A DNA stretch of 64,000 nucleotides from Minisyncoccota bacterium (GCA_041664425.1 JBAYKU010000003.1:3373-67372), one strand, 5' to 3'; positions 22,465 to 29,670 are shown, counted from the stretch's first letter. Made by a program: numbers and translations. Notes: a model not told the origin generated them from the sequence alone.

Positions 22465-22536
22465 TGCCCCCGCGAGGAATCGAACCTCGATTAACGGCTT
22501 AGAAGTCCGCAGTTTTATCCATTAAACTACAGGGGC
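22465..22536 (-). tRNA. tRNA-Arg (anticodon TCT)
   Basis: GCCCCTG TA GTTT AATGGATA AAAC...CTTCTAA...TTCGATTCC...CGGGGGCA. Confidence 0.75.
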
Positions 22537-22841
22537 TTTTTTGTCCTACCAAAACTTTCTTGTTGCCTATAAGTTTTTTTTCGATGGCAATTTGCACACC
22601 TTATCTCGCACTTATTAATCTCATTGGAGACCGATTTCCATGAGTAGTGGCCAGACAACATCTTTGCTACAGTTTTGAATTTACTATTTGGGTCAATATG
22701 ATCAAATTCTAAAACAATTGGATCATTCTCTCCACAATCGACGCATTTTTTAGACGAGAGAAAATCCAATAGCTTTTCCCTAACTTTAATGCGATGGTTC
22801 TTTTGAGCCTGATATAAGTCCTCCTTGTGTTTGTAGGGCAT
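22527..22841 (-). CDS. HNH endonuclease (small, free-standing); 3' end overlaps tRNA-Arg(TCT) by 10 nt
   Basis: CVDCGEND...LEFDHIDPNS...CANCHRKK HNH/zinc motif. Confidence 0.7.
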   Translation of the reverse strand: MPYKHKEDLYQAQKNHRIKVREKLLDFLSSKKCVDCGENDPIVLEFDHIDPNSKFKTVAKMLSGHYSWKSVSNEINKCEIRCANCHRKKTYRQQESFGRTKKPL

Positions 22842-22939: not shown

Positions 22940-23686
22940 ATGAAATCATCGTTTGTTGAAGCTAAAAAAGAATTAAAAAAGCTGGCCAACCCGATTCAGG
23001 CGGAAATTCTCCAGCGCTTCTTCAAAACCGGTCGAGGTCAATATGGCGAGGGCGATATTTTTCTGGGAGTGAAAGTGCCACAAACTAGAAAAGTGGCTAA
23101 ACAATTTCGCGAGCTACCTCTGGCGGAAGTCGAAAAACTGCTACATTCTAAAATTCACGAAGAGCGTTTGCTGGCGCTACTAATTTTGATTCAGAAATTT
23201 CAGCTGTCGGGCGAAGGGGAACAGAGAAAAATTTACCGTCTCTATTTAAAAAATCTAAAAGGAACTTGTCGCGTGGGAGCGCAGCGATTTTACGCGATCA
23301 ACAATTGGGACTTGGTGGATTTGTCAGCACCGCAAATTGTCGGCACTTTTCTGCTTGATAAAAATCGGTCGGAACTTTATCGTTTGGCGCGATCTAAACA
23401 CCTCTGGAGTAGGCGAGTGGCGATGATCTCAACTTTTGCTTTCATTAAAAAACAGCAATTCGACGACAGTTTAAAACTGGCCGAGATTTTATTGACTGAT
23501 AAACACGACCTGATTCACAAAGCCGTCGGTTGGATGTTGCGCGAGGTGGGGAAGCGCGACCTAGTGGCCGAAGAAAACTTTTTGAAAAAATATGCCGGCA
23601 CCATGCCCCGCACTGCCCTCCGCTATGCTATTGAAAAATTCCCACCAGTGAAAAGACAATTTTACCTTAAATATGGCTCAAAATAA
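22940..23686 (+). CDS. DNA alkylation repair enzyme (AlkD/AlkC-like HEAT-repeat glycosylase)
   Basis: family-typical N-terminus (AEILQRFFKTG...) and HEAT-like repeats. Confidence 0.6.
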   Translation: MKSSFVEAKKELKKLANPIQAEILQRFFKTGRGQYGEGDIFLGVKVPQTRKVAKQFRELPLAEVEKLLHSKIHEERLLALLILIQKFQLSGEGEQRKIYRLYLKNLKGTCRVGAQRFYAINNWDLVDLSAPQIVGTFLLDKNRSELYRLARSKHLWSRRVAMISTFAFIKKQQFDDSLKLAEILLTDKHDLIHKAVGWMLREVGKRDLVAEENFLKKYAGTMPRTALRYAIEKFPPVKRQFYLKYGSK

Positions 23687-23702
23687 GGTTATCTGTACAC
23701 TA

Positions 23703-23733
23703 TTGACATATATATAAAACGGGTGTATAATAT
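23703..23733 (+). promoter_or_regulatory. near-consensus sigma-70 promoter (TTGACA ... TATAAT, 19-bp spacer) upstream of the DGR target gene
   Basis: ttgaca at 23703-23708, tataat at 23728-23733. Confidence 0.5.
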
Positions 23734-23812
23734 AGGGTAGATCCGCTGGAGTCTAAAACACTGGGTTTTGGGCTAGCTAGCGAAAGAAATTGACAAAGAA
23801 AGGGAAAAGACG

Positions 23813-24445
23813 ATGTCTACCAAGAACACGTCGAAAGAATCCGAAGTTGTAATGGCAACAGGAGAGCAGGTTGAGCACATCATGGATATGTGGCGTAGGC
23901 GTCTGAATAGCCGCAAACTGACCCTGGCAGAGGCCCAGCACATCATCCAGAACGGCGGTCAGTATTTGCCTATCATGGATAAGGCGGCCGATGTCCTCGT
24001 GGATCAGGTGCGGTCGGATACGCAGAACACGATCATCCGTATGGTTCGCAACGTTCAACGCAATCGGTCTGCGGAGCAGGCCATCAATGCTACCGGACGC
24101 ACGAAGTATGTCGACAGCTCTGTCCTTGCGAGCATGCCGGTCGGTAGTGGCCCCGAGGAAGTGGAACTCGTTTACTTCAAGCTTGGCCGCTATGTTGGCA
24201 ACGAAGAGCTTGAACGCGAGTACGATGTCCGTGGCCTTCGACCCGATCCTCAAGCACAATCGGCTGACAACGAGGGAGATCCGTCTTTCGCGGACGACCA
24301 CCCGAATGGTTGTCTCTGGGGTCGCGATGGTCGGGTGGCAAGTTTCGTCGCGTTCGGTCGTTGGTTCGGCGGGCGCGAGGTGAGCGTCGACCGCGTCGAC
24401 TGCGGCTGGTTCGGCCGCTGGTGGTTCGCCGGTGTTCGCAAGTAA
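23813..24445 (+). CDS. DGR target (variable) protein; the C-terminal ~34 aa are encoded by the variable repeat, ending ...GWFGRWWFAGVRK
   Basis: 3' end is an adenine-mismatched copy of the TR; GC-rich ORF; GGAAAAG RBS. Confidence 0.8.
   Translation: MSTKNTSKESEVVMATGEQVEHIMDMWRRRLNSRKLTLAEAQHIIQNGGQYLPIMDKAADVLVDQVRSDTQNTIIRMVRNVQRNRSAEQAINATGRTKYVDSSVLASMPVGSGPEEVELVYFKLGRYVGNEELEREYDVRGLRPDPQAQSADNEGDPSFADDHPNGCLWGRDGRVASFVAFGRWFGGREVSVDRVDCGWFGRWWFAGVRK
24340..24441 (+). repeat. DGR variable repeat (VR)
   Basis: ~100-bp homology to TR; every mismatch falls where TR has A (A->G/C/T). Confidence 0.85.
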
Positions 24446-24500
24446 TTTTCCCTCAGGCTTAAGTTTCTTTGTGCTTCGGTACTTAGACACTTAGTCCTTA

Positions 24501-24527
24501 CCCCACCCTCTCTGTGAGAGGGTGGGG
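24501..24527 (+). promoter_or_regulatory. GC hairpin downstream of VR (ccccaccctctc-tgtg-agagggtgggg), the typical DGR target-recognition stem-loop
   Basis: perfect 11-12 bp stem ~55 bp after the VR end. Confidence 0.6.
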
Positions 24528-24831
24528 TAAAATTTTGCATAAAAAAATAAAATGTTAAGATAAAAAAGGTAGTAGGTGAATATCAGTAAGCAATTAAGGT
24601 TGCTTGCCACCGAATCCAGTATCCATACATTGAGAATATCTGCGACTACGGTTTCAGATAGGGTGGTGTATGTAGACACTTCACAAAAAATGAAGCTACT
24701 TGGTGCGAGATACCAAGGCATTACGATGCCGAATAAGATTCAACCCCGAGAGCAAGGTGAACGGAGCAGTCATCGTATGATGGCAACTCCGAGAGTATTC
24801 GAGGGGTGGTGACATAGACGATATCTCGTAC

Positions 24832-24932
24832 AATTTCGTCACGTTCAATCGTTGGAACGACAAGCGCAAGGTGAACGTCAACCGCAACGACAACGACTGG
24901 AACGACAACTGGTGGTTCGCCGGTGTTCGCAA
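24832..24932 (+). repeat. DGR template repeat (TR), AAC-rich (aacgacaagcgcaaggtgaacgtcaaccgcaacgacaacgactggaacgacaac...)
   Basis: aligned base-by-base with VR; differences only at TR adenines. Confidence 0.85.
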
Positions 24933-24938
24933 CTCTCT

Positions 24939-25292
24939 TCATTTCTCTCCAGCTTTCACTGGAGAGTTTTGTTTTGTAAGCTTTCCATTCCAACCCCCAA
25001 GCATTTTACCAATCTCATCTAATTTTAAAGACAGAGCAATATATTTTTTAGTATCTAAAGACTTGGCCTCCCATAGGACCAGCAAAAGGACTTTGAGCGT
25101 ATCCATTTTTCTGATAGCTAATCGAACATATGGTGCCTTGTCTGCCGGAGACAAAAACGAAGCACTGGCCACGGCCTCTATCGCTTCAATAAACAAAGCG
25201 TCAACTCTTAAACCCAAAGAAAATTTTTCAACCTTGGGTAAAGTCTGATGATATTGGTGCCACAAAAGATAAGCTGATTTCAAATACTGCAA
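24939..25292 (-). CDS. avd: Avd-like accessory variability determinant (four-helix-bundle protein of the '23S rRNA intervening sequence protein' family)
   Basis: YLLWHQYHQTLPKVEKFSLGLRVDALFIEAIEAV...LDEIGKMLGGW resembles the Avd family; encoded antisense to the TR/RT. Confidence 0.6.
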   Translation of the reverse strand: MQYLKSAYLLWHQYHQTLPKVEKFSLGLRVDALFIEAIEAVASASFLSPADKAPYVRLAIRKMDTLKVLLLVLWEAKSLDTKKYIALSLKLDEIGKMLGGWNGKLTKQNSPVKAGEK

Positions 25293-25335
25293 AAGTGGTA
25301 GTAATTTTGTCGGGGGGGGGGGTACTATTGGTCAA

Positions 25336-26331
25336 ATGAGTGGAATTAAATTTATTCACAAATATGAGGATATCATTTCCCTTGATAATTTACTAGGAGC
25401 TTGGCGACAATTTGTTCGAGACAAAAAATCTAAAAAAGATGTTCAAGAATTTGAATTAAACTTGATGAGTAATATCATTTCTCTACATCTCGACCTCAAA
25501 CACAAAACCTACTCCCACGGTCCCTACCTAGCCTTCAACATCTCTGACCCCAAACCGCGTAATATCCACAAAGCCCTCGTTCGCGACCGTCTGCTCCACC
25601 ATGCCATCTACCGTGTTCTGCATCATCACTTCAACTCAAAATTCATCTACGACTCGTATTCTTGTCGTTTGGGCAAAGGCACGCACAAGGCAATTAAAAG
25701 ATTTGAACAAATGGCAAGAAAAGTTTCGTGTAATAACACCAAAACTGGCTGGATTTTAAAATGCGATGTCAGAAAGTTTTTTGCTTCGATTGATCAAACT
25801 ATACTTCTAAATATTTTAAAAAAACACGAGCCTGACCCAGATATTATCTGGCTCCTCGAGCGGGTAATCAGTAGTTTTTATAGCACCGAATTTGGCAAAG
25901 GTTTGCCTTTGGGTAATTTAACCTCGCAACTCTTGGTTAATATCTACATAAATGAATTTGACCAGTTTATGAAGCACCAACTCAAAGCCAAATATTACCT
26001 CCGTTATGCTGATGATTTTGTGATTATGGACACAGACAAAAGATGTCTCGAAAAACTTTTGCCTAAAATCAAGGTTTTTCTGCTAGTCCAGCTTAAACTC
26101 ACGCTTCATCCCGACAAGGTGTATATCAAAACTCTAGCTTCGGGTGTGGATTTTCTCGGCTGGGTGCATTTTCCTCATTATCGAGTGCTGCGGACGGCGA
26201 CAAGGAGGAGGATGTTTAAGAGAATTAGAGAAACGAGTGGCAAAAAAGAGACCGTGCAATCTTATTTGGGGTTGCTGAAGCATGGTAATGGATATGGATT
26301 AAGAGAAAAAATTATAAGCTCGGCTGGTTAA
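25336..26331 (+). CDS. DGR reverse transcriptase (331 aa, no maturase/endonuclease domains)
   Basis: RT motifs incl. YADDFVI (YxDD), the LGNLTSQ region, size typical of DGR RTs. Confidence 0.85.
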   Translation: MSGIKFIHKYEDIISLDNLLGAWRQFVRDKKSKKDVQEFELNLMSNIISLHLDLKHKTYSHGPYLAFNISDPKPRNIHKALVRDRLLHHAIYRVLHHHFNSKFIYDSYSCRLGKGTHKAIKRFEQMARKVSCNNTKTGWILKCDVRKFFASIDQTILLNILKKHEPDPDIIWLLERVISSFYSTEFGKGLPLGNLTSQLLVNIYINEFDQFMKHQLKAKYYLRYADDFVIMDTDKRCLEKLLPKIKVFLLVQLKLTLHPDKVYIKTLASGVDFLGWVHFPHYRVLRTATRRRMFKRIRETSGKKETVQSYLGLLKHGNGYGLREKIISSAG

Positions 26332-26379
26332 TGTAATTTGGAAAAAGTTAGTTTCTGTGGTTATATTAGTCAGATATTT

Positions 26380-26452
26380 GGGCGGTTAGCTCAGTTGGTA
26401 GAGCATTTGATTTACACTCAAAGGGTCACAGGTTCGAGTCCTGTACCGCCCA
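26380..26452 (+). tRNA. tRNA-Val (anticodon TAC)
   Basis: GGGCGGTTAGCTCAGTTGGTAGAGC...TTTACAC...GGTTCGAGTCC...ACCGCCCA. Confidence 0.85.
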
Positions 26453-26453
26453 C

Positions 26454-27185
26454 TTGAAAGACATCCCCATTATTTTTGAAGACTCCGATATTCTGGTCTT
26501 AAATAAACCCGCCGGTTTGTCGGTGCATGGTGATGGTTTTAATACTGAACCAACTTTAGCCGATTGGCTTCTCAAAAAATATCCCGCTTTAGCGGAAATA
26601 GGCGAGTCAATGAAAGACCAAAAGGGGATTGAAATAAAAAAACCAGGTCTAGTTCATCGTCTCGATCGCGATACCAGTGGAGTTTTGTTGGTGGCTAAAA
26701 ATCAACCCACCTTTTTATTTCTCAAAGAACAATTTAAAAATCACTTAGCTTCAAAGACTTACCGCGCAATTTTGTCGGGGGAGATGAAGGGGGAAGTGGG
26801 GCAGGATCAAACTATTTCTCTGCCGATTGGGCGGAGTAATCGTGATCCGCGCCAGCGAGTGGCCAACATCAAAGCGGCTGGCACTTTGCGGGAGGCGACG
26901 ACTATCTATCGGGTGCTGAAAACCGCTTCTGGCTATACCTATGTTGAGGCCAACCCAAAAACTGGCCGGACCCACCAGCTCCGGGTCCATTTTAAAGCCC
27001 TCAATTATCCCATCCTCTGTGACGCTCTCTATGCCCCTAAGCTCGCTTGTTCGGACATGATGGGGCGTCAGGCTCTCCACGCCTTTTCACTCTCTATTAC
27101 CCTGCCCAACGGGGAACTGGGCTGTTTTTCCGCGCCCCTACCCTTAGATTTTCAAAAAACCCTTGATAATCTTGGTTTGATGTGA
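26454..27185 (+). CDS. RluA-family pseudouridine synthase (TTG start 2 nt after the tRNA)
   Basis: GLVHRLDRDTSGVLLVAKN and HQLRVH motifs. Confidence 0.75.
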   Translation: MKDIPIIFEDSDILVLNKPAGLSVHGDGFNTEPTLADWLLKKYPALAEIGESMKDQKGIEIKKPGLVHRLDRDTSGVLLVAKNQPTFLFLKEQFKNHLASKTYRAILSGEMKGEVGQDQTISLPIGRSNRDPRQRVANIKAAGTLREATTIYRVLKTASGYTYVEANPKTGRTHQLRVHFKALNYPILCDALYAPKLACSDMMGRQALHAFSLSITLPNGELGCFSAPLPLDFQKTLDNLGLM

Positions 27186-27767: not shown

Positions 27768-28442
27768 ATGGGTAAAAGAGGTCCAAAACCGAAAGGGGTT
27801 GTAGATACCAAATGGTCAGCAGACCTGGCCTATGCTATAGGCTTGCTGTCCTCTGATGGATGTCTTTCTTCTGATGGTAGACATATAACTCTAGTTTCAA
27901 AAGATGAAGAACAAATAGTGAATTTTCTAAATTGCCTTAAAATTGAACTCAAAATAGGTAAAACTTACAATGGTTCCAAGGATAAGAGAGTCTATTATCG
28001 TGTGCAAGTAGGTGATGTATTATTTTACAATTTTTTGTTAGAGCTTGGACTTGCCTCTGCTAAATCAAAAACTATTAGTTCTTTAAAAATTCCTGACAAA
28101 TACTTTTTTGATTTCTTAAGAGGGTCTTTTGATGGTGACGGTTGTTTTTATTCCTATTGGGATCCGCGCTGGAAATCTAGTTTTATGTTTTACACTAGTT
28201 TTATTTCTGCCAGTAAAGAACATATTAATTGGCTGCGAGACGAAATATTTAAGAGATTAAAAATTAAAGGTCATATCACTAAGGCTAAGAAAATGAATAT
28301 TTATTATCAGCTTAAATATGCTAAAAGTGATTCTTTGAAGGTGCTAAGAAAGATTTATCAGCCAAATAAGGTCGTGGTATGTCTATCTCGAAAAAGATTG
28401 AAAATTGACCAAGCTTTAGGCATAATAGGGAACAGTCTATAA
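27768..28442 (+). CDS. LAGLIDADG homing endonuclease (two LAGLIDADG motifs), free-standing, ends 4 nt before tRNA-Leu
   Basis: LAYAIGLLSSDGCL and FDFLRGSFDGDGCF motifs. Confidence 0.7.
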   Translation: MGKRGPKPKGVVDTKWSADLAYAIGLLSSDGCLSSDGRHITLVSKDEEQIVNFLNCLKIELKIGKTYNGSKDKRVYYRVQVGDVLFYNFLLELGLASAKSKTISSLKIPDKYFFDFLRGSFDGDGCFYSYWDPRWKSSFMFYTSFISASKEHINWLRDEIFKRLKIKGHITKAKKMNIYYQLKYAKSDSLKVLRKIYQPNKVVVCLSRKRLKIDQALGIIGNSL

Positions 28443-28664: not shown

Positions 28665-29021
28665 GTGAGAAAGCCTATCTATCTGTACAGGGTTTACCTC
28701 CAACTTCTTGCCACTGGCAAGGTGGCTAAGTTTGGGGAGACCATGGCTGTATCGGAAGCCGAAGCAGAGAATCATCTCCGTTTCCGGGAGTACGGCGAGC
28801 TCTCGATCGAGCGACTGGAATCGGAGAAGGGTCTCCGGCTGGTCGCAGCCAGGGTTGGTACGACCAAGGCGATGAAGCTGGCCCAGTTGACTGGCGAGTT
28901 ACCTCCGGCCCCCAAGGTCCGTCAGCACCGCCAAGCGCCGGCCCAGCAGTTTTTTGCTGGCACCGGGTTCGGTCTTGCCGAACCACCGACTCGTCCTCAT
29001 CGAGTCCGTCGCCATGACTAA
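28665..29021 (+). CDS. hypothetical protein, strongly GC-rich (compositionally foreign) ORF with its own promoter, GGAGG RBS, GTG start and terminator
   Basis: ORF plus regulatory signals read from sequence; no recognisable domain. Confidence 0.4.
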   Translation: MRKPIYLYRVYLQLLATGKVAKFGETMAVSEAEAENHLRFREYGELSIERLESEKGLRLVAARVGTTKAMKLAQLTGELPPAPKVRQHRQAPAQQFFAGTGFGLAEPPTRPHRVRRHD

Positions 29022-29121
29022 GCGGCGACTCCCTTGCAAGAGCGTAGGCAGAAACAGATCACTCGATTCTGTTCCGGCCCACGCTCTTTATTTTTTGCCA
29101 AAATTGTGATAAAACAAACCT

Positions 29122-29670
29122 ATGCTTTATACGACCAATGGTGATGATGGTAAGACAGGCCTTTTTGGTTGTGATCAACGGATTTCTAAAAGTTCCGCGA
29201 TTGCCGAAGCTTTGGGCTGTCTCGATGAAATCAATTCGCTTTTAGGTTGGTGTAAAGTAAAAGCTGGCGATAAGTCTTTCAAGGTTGGCACAGTGGGGAT
29301 TGCCGCTATGATTGATGAAGTTCAACAAGATCTTTTTATCATTCAGGCCCAATTAGCCGGTGCTCCAAAGGTTTTGCCAGTAGAGAGAATAAAAGTCATG
29401 GAGAGTTTGATTGGTGAGATTGAAAAAATTCTACCACCGATTAAAACTTTTTTTGTGGCTGGTGGTACCGAGTTGGCGGCTATCTTTGATCACGCTCGCA
29501 CGGTGGCTCGACGGGCTGAGAGGCGAGTGATTGCCGCTCATGAAGAAGGCCTAGTTAAAATTTCTCAAGAAAGTTTAGCTTTGCTCAATCGTCTATCGTC
29601 CCTACTCTATGCTTTGGCTCGTTTAGCCAATCATGATAGTGGGGTGAATGAAGAAGCTCCGAGGTATTAA
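29122..29670 (+). CDS. ATP:cob(I)alamin adenosyltransferase, PduO type
   Basis: MLYTTNGDDGKTGLFGCDQRISKSSAIAEALGCLDEINSLLG family-typical N-terminus. Confidence 0.8.
   Translation: MLYTTNGDDGKTGLFGCDQRISKSSAIAEALGCLDEINSLLGWCKVKAGDKSFKVGTVGIAAMIDEVQQDLFIIQAQLAGAPKVLPVERIKVMESLIGEIEKILPPIKTFFVAGGTELAAIFDHARTVARRAERRVIAAHEEGLVKISQESLALLNRLSSLLYALARLANHDSGVNEEAPRY

Follow-up and report, generated by a model that had tools for sequence, protein, structure and literature searches.

Bacteria of the candidate phyla radiation (CPR) are the lineage most enriched in diversity-generating retroelements (DGRs), and to our knowledge none of the CPR DGRs has been reconstituted. The 'B3' architecture, TR-(avd)-RT, accounts for 90% of CPR DGRs (Wu et al. 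2018, PMC5758913), and their targets have been described as having neither transmembrane (TM) segments nor known domains (Roux et al. 2021, PMC8144416). On the RNA side, the Rfam motif RT-10 corresponds to the spacer of BPP-1 (PMC5737381), and stem-loops just 3' of the template repeat were reported in 207 of 278 Avd-type DGRs, including those of CPR (Handa et al., bioRxiv 10.1101/2023.10.23.563531).

Here we analyse a 64,000-nucleotide stretch of DNA (the window) from a Candidatus Paceibacterota (CPR) metagenome-assembled genome. We consider, with a probability of about 0.9, that it carries a chromosomal DGR of the CPR ('B3', TR-(avd)-RT) type. The original prediction was that of a complete DGR, and every component it named (target with variable repeat, hairpin, template repeat, Avd, reverse transcriptase) is present. 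Since avd lies on the opposite strand, the layout is the TR-(avd)-RT one typical of CPR bacteria. Both this layout and small domain-free CPR targets are already published, so the locus would be a further DGR of a known kind; as one more example of a well-populated class it changes little by itself. What appears to be new is that the template lies within a conserved and, as the alignments suggest, folded RNA of about 400 bases.

The repeats, the reverse transcriptase and Avd

The genes, the repeats and their flanking features are the following:
23703-23731, plus strand: putative target promoter, TTGACA-17 nt-TATAAT
23813-24445, plus strand: DGR target (variable protein) gene, 210 aa, with the variable repeat as the last 101 nt of the ORF
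24341-24441, plus strand: variable repeat (VR), encoding the last 34 residues of the target, SFVAFGRWFGGREVSVDRVDCGWFGRWWFAGVRK
24418-24441, plus strand: IMH-like GC-rich 3' end of the VR, CTGGTGGTTCGCCGGTGTTCGCAA
24446-24497, plus strand: 3' flank of the target with short CTTNG repeats
24498-24540, plus strand: perfect 15-bp GC hairpin with a T-rich tail
24832-24932, plus strand: template repeat (TR)
24939-25292, minus strand: avd, 117 aa
25312-25322, plus strand: G11 homopolymer
25336-26331, plus strand: DGR reverse transcriptase (RT), 331 aa
26380-26453: tRNA-Val

The offset scan gave a single dominant diagonal at +491, on which VR and TR align base for base, as had been claimed, over 101 nt without gaps and with 79 matches and 22 mismatches. 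The same pair was recovered by a separate repeat search, and a search of both strands of the 64-kb window gave no second VR. It is conspicuous that, when the substitutions are tabulated by TR base, the mismatches are confined to TR adenines exactly as predicted (22/22), and that all of them are at codon position 1 or 2 of the ORF 23813-24445 (Fisher p = 1.7e-16). In other words, 22 of the 29 adenines of the TR are changed (15 A>G, 6 A>T and 1 A>C), and none of the 72 other positions differs. The TR adenines themselves are distributed over the codons in the same manner (13 at position 1, 16 at position 2, none at position 3), and the TR contains 7 AAC and 2 AAT codons. As all 22 differences are at TR adenines, we infer that some 15 codons of the target owe their present form to adenine-mutagenic retrohoming, with a theoretical repertoire of about 1e16 proteins. 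No substitutions are seen 3' of VR position 24417, i.e. the last 24 nt are identical to TR 24909-24932; the homology ends at 24441/24932 and the flanks diverge at once. By analogy with BPP-1, from which the role is taken (PMC5758913), the segment 24418-24441 would act as the IMH.

The same tendency is seen in related loci, which were sought with 16 closer target-family sequences as seeds. In about 35 of them, whose segment boundaries were set with a scoring that penalises A mismatches less, the TR lies 420-570 nt downstream of the VR and the mismatches are almost exclusively at A; in an untuned test on 69 independent loci, 1047 of 1174 mismatches were at TR adenines. Close pairs within the family are 93-94% identical outside the VR and 69-73% identical inside it. 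One genome has an 'orphan' target paralogue on the same contig as its DGR, at a distance of 206 kb; the paralogue and the TR of this genome differ only at adenines (15/15), which suggests a remote target of the same TR. The order TR, avd on the reverse strand, RT, with the target upstream, is also found in about 30 related loci.

The differences between VR and TR could in principle record nothing but the past activity of a DGR that is now a fossil. The exact RT sequence was found only on one contig (119 kb) of one assembly, and decayed relatives with truncated leaders and RT fragments do exist (L012, L038, L044 and L060). Neutral decay would, however, accumulate non-adenine differences, of which there are none here, and all ORFs are intact, the RT keeps its YADD and GNLTSQ motifs, and the promoter, the leader helices (see below) and the G-tract are intact and match the family consensus. 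We thus regard a fossil as unlikely and a DGR with intact parts as the better description.

The RT itself is as predicted, 331 aa with a YADD motif that is readable in the translation together with GNLTSQ, and it matches RVT_1 (3.4e-22). The two motifs are of the I/LGxxxSQ and YxDD types that characterise RTs of the DGR clade. In a PDB search its best match was BPP-1 Brt (8ub7, E = 1.1e-37; the chain was identified as Brt by tblastn against BPP-1), and the next best, of group II or retron type, was at 1.9e-18, in agreement with the assignment to the DGR type rather than to group II or retron RTs. One may still ask whether a group II intron or retron RT merely lies beside a chance direct repeat, given that the best NCBIfam match is a group II RT/maturase model; this match reaches 137.9 bits against a cut-off of 300, in libraries that hold no DGR-RT model. 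The chance that there is no DGR here is in our view negligible: a chance repeat would not confine 22 of 22 mismatches to TR adenines (p = 1.7e-16), in the PDB search Brt scored 20 orders of magnitude better than any RT of group II or retron type, an Avd homologue is present, and we see neither a maturase or endonuclease domain nor, by Rfam, an intron RNA.

The predicted Avd-family gene was also found at 24939-25292, on the minus strand (the strand had been left unstated), i.e. convergent with the TR RNA; its position and strand are unchanged in related loci. The product matches NF033474 DivGenRetAVD (E = 1.3e-13; 51.2 bits, below the NCBIfam cut-off of 80) and Pfam bAvd (PF22296, E = 4.5e-8; 34 bits, below the cut-off of 40), and a PDB sequence search with it returned nothing meaningful. 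Because of these E-values, the near full-length coverage of the profile, the pI of 9.6 and the conserved position next to TR and RT, the best reading of this ORF is a divergent Avd.

The 43-bp divergent intergenic region between avd and RT contains the G11 tract, which is followed by TACTAT and, 7 nt later, by the ATG of the RT. A tract of G7-12 is located upstream of the RT gene in 32 of 33 related loci, with lengths that differ between loci; in about one third of the loci it lies 5-6 nt before the ATG, a Shine-Dalgarno-like placement. Some promoter poly-G tracts phase-vary transcription, e.g. that of the Treponema pallidum tpr genes, and the tracts of this family are likewise directly upstream of a -10-like hexamer or the start codon. 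The conservation of the tract suggests a possible on/off or dosage control of mutagenesis.

As to the other side of the RT, the DGR was said to adjoin a tRNA-Val. The tRNA gene is indeed there, at 26380-26453, but the adjacency is not conserved, as a tRNA follows the RT in 0 of 33 related cassettes. Integration of the DGR at tRNA-Val was rejected on this ground, and we consider the adjacency incidental.

The target gene and its flanks

The promoter-like site upstream of the target, predicted as near-consensus, matches the consensus at 12 of 12 positions and is the only perfect site in the region 23600-26500. The target gene is GC-rich, as was noted originally (57.8% vs 42.9% in the window), and this is a property of the family: the GC content of target genes is about 12 points above that of their flanks in 71 of 72 loci. 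Depletion of adenines over the whole target by past mutagenesis was considered and rejected, since the AT skew is positive in the 5' half and negative only at the VR.

The target family has 1,516 representatives at 50% identity, and Pfam domains were found in none of the 59 members scanned. Hydropathy gave no evident signal peptide, in line with the original prediction, nor an evident TM segment in the target (maximum KD over 19 residues, 0.71). A small target without a signal peptide, which had been pointed out as a peculiarity, is not unusual for the CPR clade. The predicted structure consists of N-terminal helices (residues ~17-71) and a core with the C-type-lectin fold (~73-210) that has the VR on its C-terminal strands, the arrangement of DGR variable proteins of the Mtd/TvpA/FGE-like kind, so the anticipated CLec-like variable C terminus is supported by the model. 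Foldseek comparison of the model with PDB and BFVD gave nothing significant, and a sequence search of the PDB with the target profile nothing meaningful. According to the model, the approximately 15 rewritten codons are those of the ligand-binding face of the target. What such cytoplasmic-looking, GC-rich, lectin-fold proteins do is a question of function that was already flagged by Roux et al.

The short CTTNG repeats of the 3' flank are enriched in comparison to shuffled sequences, with 3.2 per 90 nt in loci that bear the leader described below, 2.7 in loci without it and 0.57 in the shuffles. Then follows the GC stem-loop, which had been placed at 24501-24527; the stem is perfect as stated and has 15 bp, but the inverted repeat extends over 24498-24530, some 57 nt from the VR. 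Related loci have a hairpin of variable sequence followed by a T-run at the same place. In terms of its shape the element is a probable intrinsic terminator of the target gene, and it is not demonstrably a DGR cruciform next to the IMH.

The leader and the RNA around the template repeat

The 'spacer' between the target and the TR is 386 nt long and holds a conserved extended -10 box and a leader of about 265 nt. The features of this region, all read on the plus strand, are the following:
24553-24561: extended -10-like box TGTTAAGAT (TGnTAnnnT), candidate promoter for the TR RNA
24566-24831: conserved structured leader (nhmmer, RNAalifold, covariation)
24575-24611: helix P1
24625-24671: helix P2
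24688-24714: 'bridging strand' AAAUGAAGCUACUUGGUGCGAGAUACC, complementary to both TR flanks
24703-24714 with 24820-24831: helix P3, 12 bp, ending at the base before the TR
24718-24729: helix P4
24743-24750 with 24800-24807: helix P5
24933-24944: conserved linker CTCTCTTCATTT, containing the avd stop codon on the other strand
24945-24976: 8-bp hairpin followed by TTTTGTTTTG, of intrinsic-terminator shape
The TR (24832-24932) fills the interval from the 3' strand of P3 to the linker, with no gap on either side.

Of 35 related loci, 33 have the TGnTAnnnT box, in most cases 11-12 nt upstream of a conserved TAGGYR motif. The leader, searched with an nhmmer profile rather than a covariance model, has one match in the window (E = 2.9e-57), and no related locus with avd or RT lacks it. 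RNAalifold predicted 74 base pairs, 56 of which show compensatory changes. The proportion of paired cells was 94.7%, as opposed to 80.3% in shuffled and 37-48% in slid alignments; an independent set of 56 loci reproduced the five helices, with 97.4%, 84.0% and 38-48%, respectively. P3 has double changes in 9-10 of its 12 pairs. RNAalifold also predicted a helix within the TR (A5 columns 562-609), which was taken as spurious because it hardly covaries. Known RNA families gave no counterpart: a scan of 23600-26400 with Rfam (release 15, including the RT-1 to RT-19 motifs) returned nothing at E <= 1 save one spurious sRNA match, neither the window nor 18 related loci gave a match that reached the gathering score, and RT-10 in particular has no match in the window.

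The leader accompanies DGRs of several different target families. An 18-nt leader motif occurs in at least 119 metagenomic loci, with a VR in 69 of the 89 that could be tested, and in only 2 contigs of IMG/VR. The leader is thus a sensitive, target-independent marker and could improve the detection of DGRs in CPR genomes.

The leader might also be something separate from the DGR RNA, such as a small protein gene (ORF 24576-24812), a cis-regulator in the 3' UTR of the target or an sRNA. A 78-aa ORF does overlap the leader in the window, and gene callers put short ORFs there in other loci. This ORF has no Pfam match, though, and its reading as a gene is at odds with the covariation of the helices and with indels that are not multiples of three. 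A terminator-shaped hairpin and the -10 box stand between the leader and the target gene, the 3' strand of one helix abuts the TR, another strand pairs beyond the TR, and the leader is present in every avd/RT locus whatever the target family. A separate leader thus seems quite improbable to us, and we return to a leader that belongs to the TR RNA.

In the predicted fold, segment 24688-24695 of the bridging strand pairs with the linker at 24937-24944, the UUG at 24700-24702 is opposite the CAA that ends the TR (24930-24932), and 24703-24714 pairs with 24820-24831, which abuts the 5' end of the TR. The UUG:CAA pairing is invariant across loci. The long-range helix with the linker was predicted by RNAalifold on a structure-blind MAFFT alignment and has double changes at 6 of 6 pairs, a covariation owed mainly to about 7 divergent loci, together with a few single compensations; the cognate linker is the best partner of the bridging strand in divergent loci. 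The window's own version of the helix is 8 bp long, after which the strands no longer match. In the comparison of cognate and non-cognate partners in the independent metagenome set, the helix strands are almost invariant and the TR-end calls are imprecise. The linker, complementary to 24688-24695, is conserved in nearly all related loci; part of this conservation is due to its encoding the stop codon and tail of avd, but this would not make it covary with a non-coding partner.

In most of the 35 related loci the position of 24945-24976 is likewise taken by a hairpin with a U-run, the stems of which differ in sequence and covary. The distance from the TR to the U-run is about 45 nt. This hairpin is a candidate for the 3' end of the TR RNA and/or for the counterpart of the Avd-binding stem-loop of BPP-1.

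From these patterns we infer that the TR is inserted, as a single-stranded segment, in an RNA gene that is complete in itself and about 410 nt long (~24567-24976), with its own putative extended -10 promoter, a leader of about 265 nt (P1-P5) and a terminator-shaped 3' hairpin. The bridging strand would pair on one side with the last TR bases and the linker behind them and on the other side with the 12 nt abutting the 5' end of the TR, so that the VR-homologous stretch, no more and no less, would be enclosed by the two predicted helices. By analogy with the Bordetella phage DGR RNA, P3 may stop the RT at the 5' end of the TR, the 3' hairpin and/or the leader helices may dock RT-Avd, and the 2'-OH that primes the synthesis would presumably be at the invariant ACUUGG. 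The location of the bridging strand upstream of the template would be retron-like, unlike the downstream strand of BPP-1.

Taken further, we tentatively propose that CPR DGRs of different target families share, as a hallmark, a self-terminating RNA of about 400 nt, circularly permuted relative to the Bordetella DGR RNA, in which the upstream clamp strand primes, together with poly-G control of the RT. The proposal is a possible rather than a probable one. Equally tentative is the view that the RNA is exactly Bordetella-like, i.e. that priming and RT-Avd docking depend on sequence 3' to the TR (the linker plus 3' hairpin, or read-through into antisense avd) and that the leader only stabilises or regulates. 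The high positional conservation of the post-TR hairpin would fit this view, as would the stem-loops that Handa et al. reported for Avd-type DGRs, CPR included. Against it, the distance from the TR to the U-run is about 45 nt, vs 140 nt for the spacer (Sp) of BPP-1, the predicted partner of both TR flanks lies 5' of the TR, and the conservation of the leader is far beyond the need of a stabiliser.

Comparison with known systems

The permuted RNA of about 400 nt proposed here for CPR DGRs has, as far as could be established, not been described. The CPR DGR literature covered here (Wu et al., Roux et al.) makes no mention of the structured leader, the poly-G tract or the GC-rich targets. If the primer strand is upstream of the template, the RNA architectures of DGRs and retrons would be linked and the Bordetella layout would not be universal. 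In practical terms, a defined RNA of about 410 nt provides a concrete construct to those who wish to reconstitute such a system in vitro or to engineer compact DGRs, with mapped helices, a candidate priming site, a putative stop helix, promoter and terminator.

There is no categorical difference between this locus and the described CPR DGRs (Wu et al. 2018, PMC5758913; clade 2 of Roux et al. 2021, PMC8144416). The host group (Patescibacteria/CPR), the gene order, the inverted avd and the C-terminal VR are alike, the target is small and without TM segments or Pfam domains in both cases, and both are chromosomal, not viral.

BPP-1 (mtd-avd-TR-brt) has the RT that is the closest solved relative of the present one, and it shares the adenine-specific mutagenesis, the IMH-like invariant GC-rich 3' end and a target with the C-type-lectin fold. 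For its RNA, Handa et al. (bioRxiv 10.1101/2023.10.23.563531) describe a strand with two partners, the 3' end of the TR and the sequence immediately before the TR, and the same is predicted here. The template:primer duplex of BPP-1 lies beside a 'stop' duplex, with a stem-loop just after the TR, and these have counterparts in our locus: a duplex that abuts the 5' end of the TR (of the 'cPRT stop' type, with a putative function) is predicted beside the duplex of the TR 3' end. The differences are as follows: here avd is inverted and downstream of the TR; the bridging strand, which in BPP-1 is in the 140-nt downstream spacer (Sp), is upstream, about 130 nt before the TR; there is an additional structured leader of about 265 nt; the RNA seems to be provided with a promoter and a terminator of its own; and the target is a small cellular protein instead of a phage tail-fibre tip.

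Retrons prime from the 2'-OH of a G at the end of a duplex. In the present RNA the elements follow one another in the same order as in the retron msr-msd: first a 5' strand whose predicted partner lies beyond the 3' end of the template, next the stem-loops and last the template itself. A conserved G (in ACUUGG) is located at the end of this duplex, where retrons carry the priming G. The likeness does not extend to the enzyme or to the product, as the RT here is of the DGR clade and its product is used for retrohoming into the VR; no msDNA is implied.

The VR/TR pair and the genes of the element

An offset scan of the region gave a single outstanding diagonal (+491). It joins the variable repeat (VR, 24341-24441) to the template repeat (TR, 24832-24932) in an ungapped alignment of 101 nt that contains 22 mismatches. 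Tabulation by base places all 22 at TR adenines, i.e. 22 of the 29 adenines are altered and none of the 72 non-A positions (Fisher p 1.7e-16), so the adenine-confined repeat of the original prediction is borne out by computational alignment. In the reading frame of the target ORF, all 22 are at first or second codon positions. The TR contains seven AAC and two AAT codons and no third-position adenines, and about 1e16 protein variants were computed to be possible from its adenine positions. A search with the non-A TR positions on both strands of the whole window revealed no VR beyond this pair. A reverse transcriptase (RT) system like that of Brt, the RT of Bordetella phage BPP-1, has rewritten the VR adenine-specifically, and the locus was rightly observed and interpreted as a diversity-generating retroelement (DGR).

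Genes and elements of the DGR
23703-23731, plus strand: predicted target promoter, TTGACA-17-TATAAT
23813-24445, plus strand: target ORF (ORF listing)
24498-24530, plus strand: perfect inverted repeat 3' of the VR (repeat search)
24939-25292, minus strand: Avd-like ORF (profile matches)
25336-26331, plus strand: RT (ORF listing and profile match)
26380-26453: tRNA-Val (tRNA search)

Among solved structures the RT is closest to chain A of PDB 8ub7 (E 1.1e-37), which over the aligned sequence shows 100% identity with brt of BPP-1; group II and 'retron-type' RTs come next, at 1.9e-18 or weaker. The RT is thus of the DGR type, as had been proposed, and its translation contains the expected YADD together with GNLTSQ. 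The I/LGxxxSQ motif is a hallmark of DGR-RTs. The anticipated Avd (accessory variability determinant) gene is an Avd-like ORF on the minus strand. The DGR Avd model of NCBIfam recognises it at E 1.3e-13 and bAvd of Pfam at 4.5e-8, each with a score below its curated cut-off, and the encoded protein is basic (pI 9.6). The stem-loop after the VR exists as a perfect inverted repeat, but it spans 24498-24530 instead of 24501-24527. The predicted target promoter agrees with the consensus at 12 of 12 positions, and the target is indeed GC-rich (57.8% vs 42.9% for the window). Every defining DGR feature that can be tested from sequence is present. The target has no match in Pfam, NCBIfam or the PDB sequences and no evident signal peptide, and its AlphaFold model, built with 30 homologues as input, is confident (pLDDT 92.9).

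The target family, its hosts and remote targets

A Candidatus Paceibacterota MAG encodes a hypothetical protein with 100% identity to the target. A profile search gave 1,516 representatives of 50%-identity clusters, 460 of them with E <= 1e-30. The homologues are nearly all about 200 aa long, with a conserved core (residues 70-210) and a variable N-terminus, and none of the 59 sampled carries a Pfam domain. A scan of species-representative genomes gave 77 related loci, labelled almost without exception as Patescibacteria/CPR lineages, and the order target(+), TR(+), avd(-), RT(+) is seen in about 30 of these. This layout was named B3 by Wu et al. (PMC5758913) and makes up 90% of their CPR set. 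Roux et al. (PMC8144416) place CPR DGRs in cellular clade 2, with targets typically lacking transmembrane or other recognisable domains, and leave open whether clade 2 targets are non-membrane proteins. Since the family is about 200 aa long, B3 is common in CPR and clade 2 targets are domain-poor, the small target, at first regarded as unusual, is typical of its clade. As a DGR, the locus is a further element of the known CPR B3/clade 2 type. A tRNA-Val does lie next to it, but such adjacency recurs in none of 33 related cassettes.

We note that CPR-type targets or cassettes also occur in MAGs labelled Gammaproteobacteria, Bdellovibrionales, Methanoregula and Methanosarcinales (L011, L028, L030, L035, L056, L057 and L073; L numbers denote individual loci). 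These labels are probably binning or labelling errors and not true hosts.

With the VR excluded, mean GC content is 56.8% for the target genes vs 44.3% for the flanks, the target gene exceeding its flanks in 71 of 72 loci. RT genes (mean 41.3%) are host-like or lower. Adenine depletion over the whole gene was considered as a cause and does not account for the GC excess. A second GC outlier, a 118-aa ORF with 61% GC (28665-29021, plus strand), lies 2.3 kb downstream in a GC island (~28700-29150). It has AGGAGG-N6-GTG at its start, is preceded by a TGnTATAAT-like box and followed by a terminator-like hairpin, and showed neither a Pfam match nor similarity to the TR. Next to tRNA-Leu there is a free-standing ORF for a LAGLIDADG-type homing endonuclease (27768-28442, plus strand), and an HNH endonuclease ORF (22527-22841, minus strand) abuts tRNA-Arg; both are mobile-element-like genes that lie among tRNAs close to the DGR.

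In about 30 loci a target paralogue has neither TR nor RT within 4 kb. One of them, L033, shares a 652-kb Moranbacteria contig with L037 at a distance of 206 kb; its VR differs from the L037 TR at 15 positions, all of which are TR adenines, and the 3' flank and hairpin are near-identical base for base. L063, also without adjacent RT or TR, differs from the TR of L066 with 16 of 19 mismatches at adenines. By this pattern L033 is a remote target of the L037 TR, at least one such case among the paralogues without TR or RT, and paralogues of this kind can be remote targets. Other loci (L012, L038, L044, L060, L011, L013, L067, L077 and L079) have a truncated leader and/or bare RT fragments directly after the target, with avd missing; in L012 and L038 the leader is cut at model position ~89. 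These cassettes have apparently decayed, which suggests that the DGR is often lost while the target gene stays.

A conserved structured leader upstream of the TR

Alignment A4 covers the stretch from the target stop codon to the TR, 330-460 nt long, in 35 related loci. It shows, in this order, CTTNG repeats, a variable hairpin with a T-run, a TGnTAnnnT box and about 265 nt of conserved sequence in which long blocks are nearly invariant. CTTNG occurs 3.2 times per 90 nt in leader-bearing loci vs 0.57 in shuffles, and the enrichment in the 90 nt after the target stop, about 5-fold over shuffles, extends to orphan and remote-target paralogues. The copies in the window (24446-24497) are CTTAAG, CTTTG, CTTCG and, twice, ACTTAG. 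It is possible that CTTNG is involved in target-site recognition.

The whole element was also aligned with MAFFT, blind to structure (A5), and folded with RNAalifold.

Features of the spacer, the leader and the region after the TR
24498-24540, plus strand: sequence-variable hairpin and T-run (A4)
24553-24561, plus strand: TGnTAnnnT box, 33/35 loci, usually 11-12 nt 5' of a conserved TAGGYR
24575-24611, plus strand: P1 (A5 fold)
24625-24671, plus strand: P2 (A5 fold)
24703-24714 with 24820-24831, plus strand: P3 (A5 fold)
24718-24729, plus strand: P4 (A5 fold)
24743-24750 with 24800-24807, plus strand: P5 (A5 fold)
24945-24966, plus strand: 3' hairpin (A5 fold)
25312-25322: G11 homopolymer in the short avd/RT divergent spacer

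The A5 fold has 74 pairs with compensatory changes at 56. Paired cells amount to 94.7%, vs 80.3% in column shuffles (0 of 500 reach the observed value) and 37-48% with partners slid by 1-3 columns; double-change cells number 419 vs 113 and 75-99, respectively. A helix that RNAalifold drew within the TR was discarded, covariation being essentially absent. The fold was repeated independently on a de-replicated set of 56 metagenome loci (A6), in which P1-P5 were recovered, with 97.4% paired cells (84.0% in column shuffles, 38-48% with slid partners) and 489 double-change cells (129 and 64-132). We put the probability that this RNA structure is real and part of the DGR at about 0.9.

An nhmmer profile of the leader has one match in the 64-kb window (24566-24832, E 2.9e-57) and matches 53 related loci, including every locus with avd or RT. 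The leader has no match in Rfam 15, where the RT-1 to RT-19 motifs of Weinberg et al. (PMC5737381), with RT-10 as the BPP-1 spacer, were included. An 18-nt leader motif was found in only 2 IMG/VR contigs vs at least 119 metagenome contigs. A full leader with sufficient sequence is present in 89 of the metagenome contigs, and 69 of these carry a VR in the same orientation, 425-569 nt upstream; in fixed, untuned 100-nt windows, TR adenines account for 1047 of 1174 mismatches in these independent loci. The window's protein family accounts for just 12 of the 69 targets; the VR and protein sequences of the others are clearly different.

The P5 loop of the window has an insertion of ~45 nt (24750-24800) relative to most relatives. 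It includes a 22-nt segment (24742-24763, AACCCCGAGAGCAAGGTGAACG) that is 82% identical to TR positions 24856-24877 (AACGACAAGCGCAAGGTGAACG). Different insertions occur in other loci, both here and at two further loop positions.

Bridging strand, poly-G tract and comparison with BPP-1 and retrons

The 3' strand of P3 terminates at 24831, one base before the TR starts. RNAalifold also pairs UUG 24700-24702 with the 3'-terminal CAA of the TR (24930-24932; a predicted helix, invariant across loci), and 24691-24696 with 24936-24941 in the linker after the TR. By inspection the latter extends to 8 bp, A24688-G24695 with C24937-U24944. Its 5' strand and that of P3 are contiguous, AAAUGAAGCUACUUG being followed directly by GUGCGAGAUACC, so the VR-homologous stretch coincides exactly with the strand that remains between the two adjoining helices. 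ACUUGG, of the CTTNG type, lies at the invariant junction of this bridging strand (24688-24714). In A5, double changes occur at 6 of 6 long-range pairs. The cognate linker is the best partner against all 34 others in the divergent L008, L025, L026, L031 and L055, and ranks 1/34 in L006 and 3/34 in L001. The long-range strands are near-invariant in A6, which therefore contributes only a few single compensations (L110, L109, L148 and L161).

The region after the TR is strikingly uniform, i.e. a 12-nt linker (CTCTCTTCATTT) that carries the avd stop codon on the opposite strand, a hairpin whose stem varies in sequence with pairing kept, and TTTTGTTTT. Hairpin and TTTTGTTTT are together shaped like an intrinsic terminator, and on the plus strand only. 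We infer that the TR is carried on a dedicated RNA of ~410 nt, from the putative -10 box (24553-24561) to the end of the U-run (24976), a span convergent with avd; we lean towards this RNA being a separate transcription unit.

Of 33 related loci from independent assemblies, 32 have a G7-12 tract (mode 10) in the avd/RT spacer, and L001 has C8 in its place. TAnnnT follows the tract immediately in 15 of the 32, and 9 of these 15 keep the window's spacing of exactly 7 nt to the ATG, an arrangement suggestive of a -10-only promoter with a leaderless RT mRNA. In other loci the RT ATG is 5-6 nt past the tract, in a Shine-Dalgarno-like position. The tract is a candidate phase-variable promoter spacer, poly-G Shine-Dalgarno element, or both. 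Our literature search found no paper on DGRs with such tracts, nor, in the literature searched, a prior description of the structured TR RNA or the upstream bridging strand. All three are family-wide features and make the mechanism of CPR DGRs directly testable. The linker clamp and UUG:CAA helix would fix the start of cDNA synthesis and P3 its end, while P1, P2 and/or the 3' hairpin may serve as the RT-Avd docking site. Cis-priming from the upstream strand, which would place the RNA-cDNA junction at or beside G24702/G24703, is a tentative proposal, to which we give somewhat less than even odds.

In BPP-1, a spacer strand downstream of the TR pairs with the TR 3' end as template:primer duplex, with priming from Sp A56, and directly next to this duplex it forms the stop duplex with the bases just 5' of the TR; an Avd-binding stem-loop lies 3' of the TR (Handa et al., bioRxiv 10.1101/2023.10.23.563531). 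The CPR RNA is likewise predicted to have two adjoining duplexes and a stem-loop after the TR, but its bridging strand is upstream of the template and not downstream as in BPP-1. Retron msr-msd RNAs have their bridging strand upstream of the template, and in this 5' position the CPR RNA resembles them.
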